DNA of 63,597 nt, counting the filler, from Caldilineae bacterium (GTDB lineage Bacteria; Chloroflexota; Anaerolineae; DTLA01): NCBI GenBank assembly GCA_037446815.1. It is 3 parts of 3 records of this genome, joined end to end, with 100 filler letters (N's around TTAATTAATTAA, not from the genome) between each part and the next. Parts side by side here need not be neighbours in the genome. Positions count along the whole stretch, not along the records: positions 1 to 23,804 come from JBBIHX010000033.1; 2 more parts are not named here. One strand, written 5' to 3'. The notes beneath the pieces were generated by a model. It was not told the origin of the DNA, did no database searches, and saw only the letters and a program-made list of their open reading frames with translations. Of the stretch, positions 886 through 54,114 are shown in pieces. The translations under genes were made by a program, and so were the position numbers. Within the stretch, counting starts at the first letter, position 1. Each line of letters opens with the position of its first letter.

Positions 886-1103
886 GGCTGCGGAGGATCC
901 CGTGGCCCATACTTTGCAGCCAAGATGAACAGATTGTCATGCAAAGGGGTTTGCGTTTTCATCGTTTTTTCATCTTGGACTGCTATACTGGGCCCGAGGG
1001 GAGAAAAGGGCTGAGGGAGGCCTTTTCGCACACTGCACCGGAGAGCACGCGCCGCGCTGCCGCCCTCCGTACTGAATCCCCGCGAGCGGTTGTTGTTTGC
1101 GCA

Positions 1104-1120
1104 TTGGCACGAGGCTTGCA
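1104..1120 (+). promoter_or_regulatory. sigma54 (-24/-12) promoter
   Basis: TTGGCACGAGGCTTGCA matches the consensus YTGGCACG-N4-TTGCW, 57 nt upstream of ATG 1178. Confidence 0.75.
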
Positions 1121-1177
1121 TGGAGCGTGTTGCCACCGTGAACGCTCGGCCAGGCGCTGTGAGCGGAGGATGCGAAG

Positions 1178-1828
1178 ATGAGCGTTGAGTCGGTTGCTGT
1201 GGACACGGCTACCCTGGAGTCCAGCCTGAAGCAGGTAAAGGGCGTGTATGCATGTCGGGTGGTGATGGATGCGCCCAACGAGATCGGCGAGATTCATGTG
1301 GTGGGCGCGCCCGACCGCAAGCCCAAGCAAATTGTGCGCGATATTGAGTCGCTCCTGTTTGCCAGGTTTGGCCTGCGGGTGAACTACCGCAAGATTAGCC
1401 TGGCGCAGATGCAGGAGGAGAAGGCGTTTGCGGCGCTGGGGTCGCGGCCCCGACTCCTGGCGGCGGAATGCGCTGGCGAGGGCGACTCCTACACCGTGCG
1501 CGTGCGGCTTGCCGATAATGGCAACGTCTTTGAGGGGGCGGCGAGCCAGCCCAAGGATGACGGGAATGCGGGCCGCGCAGCGTGCCTGGCCGCGCTGGAT
1601 GCGCTCAACAAGATGGTCAACAGGAACGGGCTGTTCACTCTGGACGCGCTAGAGGTCATGCCGGTGGCGGGCCGCGAGGTGGTGATTGTGATGGTTACCT
1701 TCGCGTTCGCCGCGGGCGAGGAGCACCTCATCGGCACGAGTTTCTACCGCGGGGATATGGTGGAATCGGCCGTCCGGGCCACGCTGGACAGTGTCAACCG
1801 GCGGCTTTCGCTCATACGGTCGCTCTAG
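1178..1828 (+). CDS. conserved hypothetical cytoplasmic protein (216 aa), first gene of the peptide/HD-GYP/DUF5317 locus
   Basis: GGAGGA RBS, typical codon usage; motifs EIHVV..RKPKQIVRDIES..RKISLAQ and AVRATLDSVNRRL. Confidence 0.85.
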   Translation: MSVESVAVDTATLESSLKQVKGVYACRVVMDAPNEIGEIHVVGAPDRKPKQIVRDIESLLFARFGLRVNYRKISLAQMQEEKAFAALGSRPRLLAAECAGEGDSYTVRVRLADNGNVFEGAASQPKDDGNAGRAACLAALDALNKMVNRNGLFTLDALEVMPVAGREVVIVMVTFAFAAGEEHLIGTSFYRGDMVESAVRATLDSVNRRLSLIRSL

Positions 1829-1862
1829 GGGTCCCGGCGCCGAGACGCCGACCCGAGCGCAA

Positions 1863-2096
1863 CGGAAGAGGTGGGAGGCGGCATCGGGCTGAAGAAGCCT
1901 GAAGCGGAGCGAAGGGGAATCGGAAGAAACCTCAACAAACTTTCGGCCGAAAGGCTAGACTAGCGAAGGAGGAGATTCCCCATGAAGTGGAGAGTTCTGT
2001 ACGCGTTGATGATCGTCGCCAGCATCGTTGCCGCAGCCGGCGCCACCGCCAAGTGGCACTAGCATGAACGCATTGGCCGCCTCCCACCTCTATCCG
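1863..2096 (+). other. long-range inverted repeat enclosing the small ORF (structured RNA domain)
   Basis: 1863-1882 CGGAAGAGGTGGGAGGCGGC is complementary to 2076-2096 GCCGCCTCCCACCTCT(A)TCCG: 16 perfect bp, one bulge, 4 more bp. Confidence 0.75.
1982..2062 (+). CDS. 26-aa small hydrophobic peptide MKWRVLYALMIVASIVAAAGATAKWH (putative signalling-peptide precursor)
   Basis: Strong RBS AAGGAGGAG at 1966-1974; ATG 1982, TAG 2060-2062; basic N-region, hydrophobic core and polar W-containing tail; below the ORF-track size cutoff. Confidence 0.8.
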   Translation: MKWRVLYALMIVASIVAAAGATAKWH

Positions 2097-2105
2097 ACCA
2101 AATCT

Positions 2106-2436
2106 GTCATTGCGAGCGAAGCGATGGCGGTTGACCTCACCCCCTCGTTGGAGAGGCCCGGCGCGGTGTCGCCCGGGGCTGAAGCCTCGGGCTGAGGAGG
2201 GCGAAGGCGCGGGGGTGAGGTGTGGCTGGCTGTGGGAGATTCNNNNNNNNNNNNNNNNNNNNNNNNNNNNNNNNNNNNNNNNNNNNNNNNNNNNNNNNNN
2301 NNNNNNNNNNNNNNNNNNNNNNNNNNNNNNNNNNNNNNNNNNGCGCATGGGAAACCCGGCCCACTCCTGTCACCCTGAGCGGAGCGAAGGGTCTCGGGTC
2401 GGGAGATTCTTCGCGGCTTCGCAGATTAGAATGACA
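2106..2436. repeat. REP-like hairpin mosaic flanking a scaffold gap
   Basis: GTCATTGCGAGCGAAGCG, CCTCACCCCC...GGGGGTGAGG, and GTCACCCTGAGCGGAGCGAAGGGTCTC...GAGATTCTTCGCGGCTTCGC motifs that recur across the window. Confidence 0.7.
2243..2342. other. assembly gap (100 N, no linker)
   Basis: Run of N. Confidence 0.99.
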
Positions 2437-2452
2437 GGGGCGAGGGCAAGAG

Positions 2453-2481
2453 TTGCGGAGTTGGCAGGTTTTGGGTAAACT
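2453..2481 (+). promoter_or_regulatory. possible sigma70 promoter for the HD-GYP/DUF5317 pair
   Basis: TTGCGG-N17-TAAACT. Confidence 0.4.
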
Positions 2482-2585
2482 GCAGGCCATCCGCAAACGG
2501 GTTCTGAGGAGAACAGATCGGCAACTGGCGGTCTGTCGCCTGGGGTCGCGGGGCATCGGCCTGCCGGTCTGGGGAGGACGGTTAC

Positions 2586-3920
2586 GTGAGGGCACTGCCC
2601 GGACGCGCGCAAGTCTATATCATCGCACTCACCGTGGCGGCTTTGCTCGGCATCCTGGGCTGGCTGCCCACGCTCATGGCCCAGCCAACGCTGTGGCCTG
2701 TGGTGTTGCTGTTCGCGGGCCTCATCTGCCTGTCTGACATGTTCCCCATCGTGATGCCGTTCCCCGGCGACGCGGAGATGACCGTTTCGGGCGCGCTGCA
2801 GGCCGCGGTTGCTATCCTGTTCGGCCCGGCCGCGGCGGCCTGGGCGGCTTTTCTGGGCACGCTGGTGGCCGAAGCGATTTTGCGACGGGCTCCACACAAG
2901 GCGGCGTTCAACGTTTCCCAGATGGTGATCACCTTCGGGGCCATGGGCTCCCTGTACCGGGTCCTCTACGATGGGAACGTCAATCCCCTGAACTCCGTCC
3001 AGAACGCCATGGCTTTGGCCTTGCTGGCGCTTTTCTACTACGTTGTGAACACGGGGATGGTGGCGCTCATCATCGCCTTCGTGAACAACATTTCGGCCTC
3101 TTACGTCTGGAAGGTGAGTTTCCGCAACATCGCGTGGCACGAACTCACCATGGTTCCGCTGGGGGCGATGATCGTGATTCTGTGGCAGGCCAGCCCGTGG
3201 GCCATTGTCCTCATGCTGCTGCCGCTGGCCGTGGTGCGCACCTCGCTGCTGCAGTCCAGCGCGCTGCAACTGCAGACGATGGAGACGCTGATGGCGCTGG
3301 CGGATACCATTGACCAGCGCGACCCGACGACCTACGAGCACTCACAGCGCGTGGCGATGTTTGCCGAGATGATTGCCAAGGAGATGGGCCTGCCACAGGA
3401 CCAGGTGGAACTCATCTCCATGTCGGCGCGCCTGCACGATGTGGGCAAGATCGGCATGAGCAACGCGCTCCTCTACAAGCCGCAGCAGTTCTCGCTGGAA
3501 GAGTGGCACGAGTTCCGCCGCCATCCGACCATCGGCGCGAGCATGGTGGAGAATTTCCCGCTGTTCCGCAAGGGCCGCGACCTCATCTTGCACCACCACG
3601 AGCGGTGGGATGGCCAGGGCTATCCCGACCGCCTGGCGGGAGAGGAGATTCCGCTGGGGGCGCGCATCATCGCCGCCGCCGACGCGCTGGAGGCCATGAC
3701 GGCCGAACGGGTGTACCGCGACGCGCTGACCCTGGACGCGGCGATAGAGGAGTTTCGGCGGGAGCGGGGCCGCCAGTTTGACCCGAGGGTGGCCGATGCG
3801 CTCATCGCCGTGCTAGAGCGGTGCCGCCAGCAGGAGCCCGATTGGGAGCGCGCGACGTTCCAGAAGCGTATTCAGGCGTATCCGGTGGTGCAGCCCATGT
3901 CCAGCAGGGTGGGGAGTTGA
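2586..3920 (+). CDS. membrane-bound HD-GYP domain c-di-GMP phosphodiesterase
   Basis: About 220-aa multi-TM N-terminus; TYEHSQRVA, LHDVGKIG, HP, HHERWDGQGYP, RIIAAADALEAM and QFDP motifs; GTG start with GGAGGA RBS. Confidence 0.93.
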   Translation: MRALPGRAQVYIIALTVAALLGILGWLPTLMAQPTLWPVVLLFAGLICLSDMFPIVMPFPGDAEMTVSGALQAAVAILFGPAAAAWAAFLGTLVAEAILRRAPHKAAFNVSQMVITFGAMGSLYRVLYDGNVNPLNSVQNAMALALLALFYYVVNTGMVALIIAFVNNISASYVWKVSFRNIAWHELTMVPLGAMIVILWQASPWAIVLMLLPLAVVRTSLLQSSALQLQTMETLMALADTIDQRDPTTYEHSQRVAMFAEMIAKEMGLPQDQVELISMSARLHDVGKIGMSNALLYKPQQFSLEEWHEFRRHPTIGASMVENFPLFRKGRDLILHHHERWDGQGYPDRLAGEEIPLGARIIAAADALEAMTAERVYRDALTLDAAIEEFRRERGRQFDPRVADALIAVLERCRQQEPDWERATFQKRIQAYPVVQPMSSRVGS

Positions 3921-3921
3921 C

Positions 3922-4491
3922 GTGATCCTGCTCGTCTTCGCCCTGGTCGCGCTGCTCATTGCCCTGGCCCGTGGCGGCGACATCATGGCGCTGGCGCGGG
4001 TGCCGTTTCGCCTGGGGTGGCTTGCGCTCCTCGCCGTCGGCCTTCAGATTCTCATCTTCTCGCAGTGGTGGGCACGGTCGGCGCTGGCCGGTTGGACGCC
4101 GGCGCTGTACATCGTGTCGCTGGCGCTGCTTGTGGGGCTGGTGGCGGCCAACTGGCGGCTGCCCGGGTTGGCCGCGGTGGGGCTGGGGCTGGCGTGCAAC
4201 GCCGTCGCCATCGGCCTGAACGGCGGCAGGATGCCCGCGTCCGCCGATGCGCTGCGCACCGCCGGATTGGAATTCGTCATCCTCAAGGCGGGGACCCTCG
4301 GCTCCTCGGCCAATACGGTGCTGCTGGGGCCGCAGACCCGCGTCCCCTTCCTGTGCGATATCTTCGCGCTGCCCTCATGGTTCCCCATGGCCACGGTCTT
4401 CTCCATCGGCGATGTGCTCATCGCGCTGGGCGCGGCGTGGTTCTTCTTGGCCGTGGTTCGCCCCAAGGGCACGACCGGCGGCCGCGGATAG
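3922..4491 (+). CDS. DUF5317 family membrane protein (signal peptidase II-like motifs)
   Basis: Hydrophobic; GLACNAVAIGLNGGRMP, FLCDIF and VFSIGDVLIALG motifs; starts 1 nt after the HD-GYP stop. Confidence 0.85.
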   Translation: MILLVFALVALLIALARGGDIMALARVPFRLGWLALLAVGLQILIFSQWWARSALAGWTPALYIVSLALLVGLVAANWRLPGLAAVGLGLACNAVAIGLNGGRMPASADALRTAGLEFVILKAGTLGSSANTVLLGPQTRVPFLCDIFALPSWFPMATVFSIGDVLIALGAAWFFLAVVRPKGTTGGRG

Positions 4492-53823: not shown

Positions 53824-54114
53824 GACTCGGCCCCAAAGTCTGTTGGCATGTACCGTCATTCTGAGCGGCGAAGCCGCGAAGAATCTCACAACCCGAGACC
53901 CTTCGCTTCGCTCAGGGTGACAGGGCCAAACCCCGCTCCCTCGCCCGCCGCAAACTGTCATTCTGAGCGGCGAAGCCGCGAAGAATCTCTCGCCCCTATC
54001 CGCACAATCCGTGCTATCCGTGGATACACCCATGGAGATGCTTCGCCTTCCGCTCAGCATGACAGAGTGGGGAGGCGGCGCGCGGGGCAGACCAACACAA
54101 GATGAAACCGACTC
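53824..54114. mobile_element. expanded MITE (291 bp) with near-perfect 8-bp TSD
   Basis: Flanks CGCCGGAG / GGCCGGAG; duplicated GTCATTCTGAGCGGCGAAGCCGCGAAGAATCTC cargo. Confidence 0.8.

Follow-up and report, generated by a model that had tools for sequence, protein, structure and literature searches.

RNase III stems, such as those of rRNA precursors and phage T7 early mRNAs, flank a functional RNA, and the substrates of this enzyme are usually around 20 base pairs (bp) long, which is about two helical turns. Terminal stem–loops of the ompA type stabilize bacterial mRNAs at their 5′ side, a base-paired 5′ end being an established protection from 5′-end-dependent decay. At the protein level, small membrane proteins of the MgrB–PhoQ type modulate membrane sensors. 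Features of the element described here recur in the type I toxin loci hok/Sok and aapA/IsoA, which, in the account given in PMC6733600, also carry a small hydrophobic open reading frame (ORF) on an RNA of approximately 200 to 400 nucleotides (nt), with a structured ribosome-binding site (RBS) and an extreme 5′ region that pairs with sequence downstream of the ORF. Here, we analyzed a 63,597-nt stretch of DNA (filler included; hereafter the window) from Caldilineae bacterium, GenBank assembly GCA_037446815.1, in which a long-range RNA helix at positions 1863 to 2096, named P1, brackets a complete small ORF. The best explanation, to which we give a probability of about 0.55 as a composite, is that P1 is the closing stem of a conserved and uncatalogued structured small-protein mRNA module of approximately 210 to 270 nt, the function of which we infer; the module would sit ahead of a gene for a membrane-bound (MASE9-type) HD-GYP phosphodiesterase of cyclic dimeric guanosine monophosphate (c-di-GMP). 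The principle of a long-range helix around a small ORF is already known from type I toxins and processing stems. What is new here is the family itself, together with its motifs, the gene with which it is partnered, and how broadly it is distributed.

The arms of P1, both on the plus strand, can be read directly from the sequence: 1863–1882 (CGGAAGAGGTGGGAGGCGGC) pairs with 2076–2096 (GCCGCCTCCCACCTCTATCCG) in 16 contiguous Watson–Crick (WC) bp (1867–1882 with 2076–2091), followed by a bulged T at 2092 and 4 more bp (1863–1866 with 2093–2096). The 5′ arm contains a nearly invariant C-G-G core (1879–1881), and the 3′ arm, which begins 13 nt past the stop codon, contains the facing C-C-G core (2077–2079). 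The domain closed in this way is 234 nt long and encloses a Shine–Dalgarno sequence (SD) and the complete 26-codon ORF at 1982–2062. The minimum free energy (MFE) fold of 1855–2105 on the plus strand uses exactly P1 and has an energy of −108.3 kcal/mol, which corresponds to a z score of −5.16 against 200 dinucleotide shuffles (−83.9 ± 4.7), none of which was as stable; the minus strand of the same region gave a z score of −2.69. The pairing proposed in the preliminary description of this locus, with the RBS and the small ORF enclosed, is thus borne out by both the sequence and the MFE fold. That description also saw neither arm among the repeat families of the window. For exact copies this holds, the exact 16-mer of P1 being found at the two arms only in a search of the window, but one repeat family (835–850 and 54064–54079) agrees with the 5′ arm in 14 of 16 positions, and 7 window matches to the 5′-arm 16-mer were found with up to 3 mismatches, versus 1.94 expected. 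The copies of this family, at 820–870 and 54050–54100 (…GCTCAGCATGACAGAGTGGGGAGGCGGCGCGCGGG…), hold a 16-mer that is two positions off the P1 5′ arm.

Homologous loci were found by using the upstream gene (1178–1828), which encodes a protein of 216 amino acids (aa), as an anchor. The anchor protein has 121 relatives at E ≤ 1e-3, the named ones being hypothetical proteins from metagenome-assembled genomes of Anaerolineae or Chloroflexota. An alignment of 44 anchor relatives (A1) led to 49 metagenome loci and 23 genome loci, and the titles of the genome records include Anaerolineae/Anaerolineales, Atribacterota, Actinomycetes/Actinomycetota, and others. A small hydrophobic ORF lies downstream of the anchor gene in 42 of the 72 loci; the remaining 30 include loci that break off too early and loci with different downstream genes, for example, a xerD-like gene in L032–L037. 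Helices were searched for between two regions, one lying 40 to 150 nt ahead of the start codon and the other reaching from 6 nt inside the end of the ORF to 50 nt beyond it. A helix in the P1 position was found in 42 of 43 elements, namely in the window and in 41 of the 42 loci; in the remaining locus, L066, it is weak, and the arm call there is probably wrong. Across elements, 84 to 136 nt separate the 5′ arm from the AUG, except in L028, an element with an insertion, where the distance is 205 nt. Measured from the end of the stop codon, the start of the 3′ arm ranges from 5 nt ahead of it to 27 nt past it in the 42 elements with a clear P1.

The arm sequences are completely different between clades, with pairing retained, as illustrated by the window (GGGAGGCGGC/GCCGCCTCCC), clade B (GCCGGTGAGAGG/CCTCCACCGGC), clade C (ACCGGCGAACTTGCG/CGCAAGTTCGCCGGT), clade D (GGACCGACATCC/GGATGTCGGTCC), and clade E (ATAGGTCGGTGA/TCACCGACCTAT). 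The longest contiguous WC runs in 12 clade representatives measure 16, 12, 7, 7, 8, 15, 14, 11, 12, 11, 14, and 8 bp. In the chance controls, 4 of 600 dinucleotide shuffles and none of 132 cross-locus pairings (maximum 10) contained a run of at least 11, compared with 16 in the window, and a 16-bp run was never reached in the 600 shuffles. RNAalifold recovered P1 in every clade alignment tried, with compensatory pairs at columns 18/292, 19/291, and 20/290 in the window's clade, and partition-function folds of 22 representatives gave P1 a pairing probability of 0.74 to 1.00. RNA.duplexfold over-extended the helices on long flanks and was dropped.

Covariation was counted on two alignments. In the all-clade MAFFT alignment (A3, 30 rows), 81.2% of the cells in P1 are paired, versus 60.9 ± 1.4% in shuffled alignments (none of 500 reached the observed value) and 39 to 48% when the partner was slid by 1 to 3 columns; both-side changes occur in 20 of 24 pairs, and 134 cells are doubly changed, versus 54 ± 6.5. 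From A3, we built a covariance model (R1, comprising P1 and a sequence profile), which recovered members outside its training set, namely L008, the actinomycete clade, L065, L020, and L060. The R1 matches resulted in a 46-row alignment (A4), in which 81.9% of the cells are paired, versus 58.4% shuffled and 35 to 49% slid, with both-side changes in 19 of 20 pairs and a covariation score of 0.565, versus 0.205 shuffled and at most 0.199 slid. The slid controls keep the relatedness of the sequences, yet their paired fraction falls to 35 to 49%. G-U cells in P1 outnumber A-C cells by 74 to 32, an excess that fits an RNA read from the ORF strand. The preliminary description had named homologous loci as the place to check the helix, and complementarity with compensatory changes is what we found there, in A3, in A4, and in 42 of the 43 elements. 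We consider it almost certain that P1 is a real, selected RNA helix. Three of its pairs (C-G, G-C, and G-C; 1879–1881 with 2077–2079, A4 columns 14–16 with 392–394) are nearly invariant, being present in 46, 45, and 39 of 46 rows, respectively, and the pairs that flank them covary freely. The near-invariance of the core in A4 hints at sequence-specific recognition of the helix.

The ORF inside P1 (1982–2062, plus strand) encodes 26 aa followed by a stop codon (MKWRVLYALMIVASIVAAAGATAKWH), predicted to be a single-pass hydrophobic mini-protein. Members of the peptide family are 25 to 31 aa long and share the consensus MKWR..L..L...AAL.LA.GA..KW. across phyla (alignment A6, 24 rows). Codons with synonymous-only and amino acid-changing differences number 8 and 0 in the window's clade (clade A), 14 and 2 in the actinomycetes of clade D, and 5 and 2 in the Atribacterota of clade E; in the more divergent clades B and C, the same counts are 11 and 10, and 11 and 9. 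Because the close clades show mostly synonymous change, the ORF is, to judge from its codons, a real gene under purifying selection. A comparison with Pfam-A and NCBIfam gave only DUF2749 for the window's peptide, at 15.5 bits (cut-off 25.5), and none of seven variants from other clades matched a Pfam or NCBIfam family above the cut-off.

The leader between the 5′ arm and the ORF, all on the plus strand, starts with the P2 hairpin (1884–1902), which has the core GGCU GAAGA AGCC and is kept in the Chloroflexota clades A and B. It is followed by the tandem AGCGR motif M1 (1902–1914, AAGCGGAGCGAAG), where the element's primary sequence is conserved best across phyla, and by the 5′ strand of helix P3 (1914–1921, GGGGAAUC), the partner of which (1974–1981, GAUUCCCC) occupies the spacer between the SD and the AUG. 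Within P3 lie the hairpin P4 (1940–1954, CUUUCGG/CCGAAAG) and the motif M2 (1961–1974, UAGCGAAGG), in which a further AGCGR, the third, leads into the SD, GGAGGAG (1968–1974). AGCGR occurs 50 times in 21 representative leaders, versus 8.7 ± 2.6 times in dinucleotide-shuffled leaders (maximum 17 in 500 shuffles), and only one of the 21 lacks it; the distal copy is located in a hairpin loop in several clades. P3 equivalents with different sequences are present in clades B, C, E, G, and H. In the all-clade consensus, the internal helices could not be aligned across phyla, and P1 alone survives. A different arrangement was seen in L088 (G016:C319), where the AGCGR motifs come after the peptide ORF, not before it, one of them in a hairpin loop and one entering the SD of the following HD-GYP gene.

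Folding predictions for 22 representatives gave the SD region an unpaired probability of 0.05 to 0.63 (0.23 in the window), with the last four spacer bases mostly paired (unpaired probability 0.00 in the window) and the AUG mostly open. For the RBS as a whole (−14 to +3), the predicted unpaired probability was 0.37 in the full domain, 0.39 in an RNA that ends at the stop codon, and 0.36 when the 5′ arm was left out (n = 20; Wilcoxon p = 0.70 and 0.67 for the differences). By prediction, then, occlusion of the RBS is local, being due to P3, and independent of P1. The preliminary description had suggested that the mRNA could be held translationally silent until it is processed; this suggestion found no support, because the predicted accessibility of the RBS does not depend on P1.

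Promoters and terminators were scanned for on both strands of 10 loci, the promoter scan being confined to σ70-like signals. In 4 of the 10 loci, an extended −10 σ70-like promoter ends 7 to 9 nt ahead of the 5′ arm (L010, TTGACA-17-TAGAAT; L054, TTGACA-17-TAAAAT; L011, TTGCCA-17-TAGAAT; L083, TTGCAA-17-TACAAT), and in those four clades the transcript should, on the strength of these promoter sequences, begin with the 5′ arm. In the window's clade, 34 nt separate the stop codon of the anchor gene from the arm, and a G+C-rich hairpin (1829–1854, plus strand; GGGUC..GGCG loop CGCC..GACCC) directly after that stop codon, with no U-tract, occupies this interval. The hairpin has different but, by eye, still pairing sequences in L001–L007 and L050–L052.

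At the other end of the element, the 3′ arm of L086 leads straight into a 13-bp terminator, which, as read from its sequence, would yield a discrete RNA with paired ends; most other loci, including the window, have no terminator directly after the 3′ arm. A T-run of at least 5 within approximately 10 nt after P1 is present in 10 of 42 tabulated elements (L022, L030, L069, L070, L026, L063, L029, L025, L021, and L067). The longest T-run after P1 is 0 to 2 in the window (tail ACCAAATCTGTC) and in all of clades A and G, and most of clade B has none. Two sets of candidate terminators were rejected: the hairpins approximately 66 nt after P1 in clade B, which by eye are the start region of the HD-GYP gene, with the SD in the stem and GUG in the loop, and the apparent terminators at +101 to +130 in clade C, which lie inside the HD-GYP reading frame. 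A single antisense promoter-like site was found inside the element among the 10 loci, in L022; it is weak (9/12) and at chance level.

The gene that follows the element in the window, at 2586–3920 on the plus strand, encodes a membrane HD-GYP phosphodiesterase (HD_5, E = 3.6e-38), the N-terminal membrane domain of which is MASE9-like at 23.5 bits, just below the cut-off of 24.3. A gene for a DUF5317 membrane protein (3922–4491, plus strand) comes directly after it. In the account of the preprint that introduced it, MASE9 is a sensor domain that HD-GYP proteins carry in the membrane, and its authors propose that it binds its ligand there (bioRxiv 10.1101/2021.11.05.467447). Among 21 loci tested, the next downstream gene encodes HD_5 in 19, and MASE9 too in 15 of these. 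The gap between P1 and the HD-GYP gene in the window is approximately 490 nt and includes repeat copies and a 100-N run (2243–2342; masked or unresolved) flanked by copies of the window's repeat family, which limits statements on cotranscription in the window. A complex prediction for the L014 peptide and the MASE9 domain, made with their own alignments, scored 0.01 against a mark of 0.32, and we take it as evidence neither way. Eight loci (L014, L017, L024, L054, L055, L059, L067, and L072) have a conserved hairpin, GGAGCCUC-loop-GAGGCUCC, approximately 14 to 68 nt past the P1 3′ arm; judged by its sequence, it appears to hold the SD of the HD-GYP gene in its 5′ strand and the GUG start codon in or next to its loop and so to be a second local RBS-sequestering structure.

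The element is present as one full-length copy in each of three related genomes (3.2–3.7 Mb; E = 1e-89 to 1e-101), the other hits being short, with E > 0.01. R1 has matches in 12 of 151 Chloroflexota genomes, drawn evenly, and in 18 of 151 from Actinomycetota (17 of 150 without the unpublished G242), and 9 of these 18 match the full model. The genome sets are samples in which many genomes are incomplete, and absence elsewhere is not implied. Against Rfam 15, at E ≤ 1, window positions 1000–3000 gave only Acido-Lenti-1 (17.2 bits, gathering score 37) at 2172–2199, outside the element, and nine diverse homologous loci gave no match on the element. No description of the element was found among the papers listed for DUF5317, MASE9, or HD-GYP proteins with small ORFs.

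Taken as a module, the element would consist of a tandem-AGCGR leader, the helix P3 that buries the spacer between SD and AUG, and a complete gene for a single-pass membrane protein of 25 to 31 aa. In this composite explanation, P1 would act as a clamp between the 5′ end (or border) of the mini-cistron RNA and the nucleotides immediately beyond its stop codon, and the clamped cistron would fold as one autonomous, nuclease-resistant domain. Peptide yield would be governed by P3 and the AGCGR motifs within the domain, not by P1, and the AGCGR motifs are probably a platform for a putative trans-acting factor. A ribosome that finishes the ORF would abut P1 in the window, given the 13-nt spacer, and would have to open the inner part of P1 in clades B, E, and F, where the spacer is at most 4 nt or the arm begins before the stop codon ends. 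This geometry could link translation of the mini-gene to the fold of the operon's 5′ domain. As in mRNAs of the ompA type, the first transcribed bases are predicted to be paired in clades B, C, and H and in L054; unlike in those mRNAs, the partner strand of P1 lies more than 200 nt away, past the whole cistron, and does not form a local hairpin. The peptide itself probably acts in the membrane together with the HD-GYP protein. Like MgrB, it is a small (25–31 aa) single-pass peptide encoded directly beside a membrane-anchored signaling enzyme, but its gene, unlike those of the MgrB type, is embedded in a conserved RNA fold. A further reading of the same parts is possible, if doubtful: the element could be a sensor RNA of a new class, working as a riboswitch or through an RNA-binding protein that is itself under ligand control, with the P1 core and the AGCGR motifs as its recognition site, and could set the level of a micro-protein that tunes the membrane HD-GYP enzyme.

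Several observations weigh against the module explanation. P1 varies in length from 12 to approximately 33 bp across clades, with 12 to 16 bp in the actinomycetes of clade D and 25 to 33 bp in clades G and B, and phyla have only part of the internal architecture in common. The gapped helix score separated true from mismatched arms weakly (own pairings 34 to 53; cross-locus mean 28.8, SD 5.8, maximum 50 to 52), so that it was dropped in favor of the contiguous-run and alignment-based counts, and the counts from A3 and A4 lean toward the helix to which these alignments were trimmed or fitted. No promoter was called beside the 5′ arm in 6 of the 10 loci scanned (the window, L026, L086, L096, L029, and L022), and window positions 1600–2240 contain no σ70-like promoter or terminator; in the window's clade, the 5′ arm may sit within a longer transcript, so that 5′-end protection may not apply. 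P1 is also not obligatory for the peptide, because some genomes have the peptide gene without leader or P1: in L087 (G081:C28:42430-42740), two tandem identical genes for a related 31-aa peptide (MKWATLKMKVIYGLMVIASLVMAAGADSRWA) have strong SDs and neither an AGCGR leader nor P1. Finally, the association with the anchor gene is incomplete. Of 10 new full-length R1 hits, 7 have the anchor gene upstream, and the other three (L094, L095, and L098) lack it within 1.5 kb upstream. Because these 3 of 10 hits keep an HD-GYP motif downstream, RNA and peptide are more closely linked with the HD-GYP gene than with the anchor gene.

The length of the helix bears on the suggestion that P1 is an RNase III processing stem, which would excise the mini-cistron from a longer transcript of the 216-aa gene, the peptide, and the HD-GYP gene and leave a stable RNA with paired ends, at a level uncoupled from its neighbors. 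Like the stems of this kind, P1 is a long helix built from both flanks that brackets a complete unit, and in the window it comprises approximately 20 bp (16 + 4 with one bulge), or roughly two helical turns, with 25 to 33 bp in clades G and B; a polycistronic precursor is plausible in the window's clade, where no promoter was called on the way from the upstream gene to the 5′ arm and no terminator follows P1. The range of 12 to approximately 33 bp is nevertheless unlike that of processing stems, clade D having merely 12 to 16 bp, and in four clades the predicted promoter places the 5′ end at the arm itself, which leaves nothing upstream to remove. The nearly invariant C-G-G/C-C-G core also sets P1 apart, invariant base pairs not being a known requirement of RNase III. 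We regard processing by RNase III as unlikely. Membership of the hok/aapA type, an analogy drawn in the preliminary description, is considerably less likely still. Under it, 5′–3′ pairing would keep the mRNA of a toxic peptide inert until its 3′ end is trimmed, with an antisense RNA as antitoxin. Features listed as hallmarks of the hok and aapA families in the account of PMC6733600 are present here: the peptide is short and hydrophobic and has charged ends, the SD is strong, and a 5′–3′ helix surrounds the ORF; the RBS is also largely paired in the predicted ensemble. That account also describes several aapA copies per chromosome and a 5′–3′ interaction that keeps the RBS closed until the 3′ end has been trimmed (PMC6733600). 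The present element, in contrast, has a single copy in each of the three related genomes and a fixed gene order beside the HD-GYP gene across at least three phyla (Chloroflexota, Actinomycetota, and Atribacterota), not the patchy spread within single lineages of that class, its peptide has been under purifying selection over deep divergence, and no antisense gene is evident from the σ70-like promoter scan of 10 loci, where the weak site in L022 is not a credible antisense promoter. Removal of either arm leaves the predicted accessibility of the RBS the same, so that, by this prediction, P1 carries no anti-SD. On these grounds, we do not place the element among the type I toxins.

The position of the 3′ arm near the stop codon in 42 of 43 elements, with the HD-GYP gene following on the same strand, would suit a long-range terminator or attenuator, in which the 3′ arm pairs with the 5′ arm before a U-run and stops transcription ahead of the HD-GYP gene, unless a ribosome at the ORF stop codon blocks pairing and allows read-through. 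The T-runs found after P1 in 10 of 42 elements agree with this, but such runs are expected from composition in A+T-rich genomes, and they are missing from the window, from clades A and G, and from most of clade B. A stem that closes a 200-nt structured loop is an atypical intrinsic terminator, and the combination of a G+C-rich stem and a U-tract that marks intrinsic terminators is absent from the window, the elements with T-runs all belonging to other clades. Attenuation by P1 thus seems quite improbable to us. Control of the ermC type by a leader ORF was considered and rejected, the 3′ arm of P1 ending at 2096 and the HD-GYP gene starting at 2586, outside the helix; in clade B, the HD-GYP start codon is in a local hairpin of its own, approximately 66 nt after P1. 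That the arms are complementary by chance, or form a DNA inverted repeat such as the ends of a miniature transposable element or paired protein sites, is hardly credible. The purine-rich and G+C-rich context and the repeat family that has 14 of the 16 5′-arm bases speak for it; against it stand the absence of 16-bp runs from 600 shuffles, the one copy per genome in three genomes, the conserved synteny, the pairing that is kept while the sequence changes completely, and the 74 to 32 excess of G-U over A-C, which a DNA repeat leaves unexplained. A family of miniature transposable elements or other repeats was rejected as such, given one full-length copy in each of three genomes and an exact arm that occurs only twice in the window.

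The 216-aa protein encoded upstream (1178–1828, plus strand) belongs to no Pfam or NCBIfam family. Its AlphaFold2 model (predicted local distance difference test score 84) has an N-domain of α-β-β-α-β topology, resembling a ring-building motif, and a C-domain of two β-β-β-α repeats. In Foldseek, the C-domain is most like the leucine/isoleucine-binding regulatory domain of LeuA/citramalate synthase (E = 3e-5), and there were weaker matches to tandem double-stranded RNA-binding domains; a sequence search of the Protein Data Bank with the 216-aa family gave only chance-level phycocyanin matches (E ≥ 0.08). Going by the model, the protein may be a small-molecule-sensing partner of the locus, and could conceivably be an AGCGR-binding protein. 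Structured RNAs of other kinds were seen near the 216-aa gene. A raiA RNA (RF03072, gathering score 101.3) lies approximately 1 to 3 kb from it in two loci, one from Atribacterota and one from Actinomycetota (L026:1923-2128, plus strand, 170.5 bits; L065:109-408, minus strand, 155.7 bits), and upstream of the gene, L065:1511-1891 (plus strand) has a subthreshold match to the cspA thermoregulator (55.9 bits, gathering score 78, E = 1.6e-11).

If the module explanation is true, the element represents an uncatalogued structured RNA family that carries an unannotated, phylum-spanning gene for a small membrane protein and is physically tied to a membrane c-di-GMP phosphodiesterase with a MASE9 sensor. 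We know of no ligand for the MASE9 domain, and the module would offer a testable entry into the control of MASE9 HD-GYP enzymes. It would also be a clean natural case of a whole cistron held within a covarying long-range helix outside toxin–antitoxin systems. Nearly all members come from uncultivated lineages, in which such elements escape annotation. Should the sensor-RNA reading be the true one, the element would add a control layer of RNA and micropeptide to c-di-GMP turnover in Chloroflexota, Actinomycetota, and Atribacterota.

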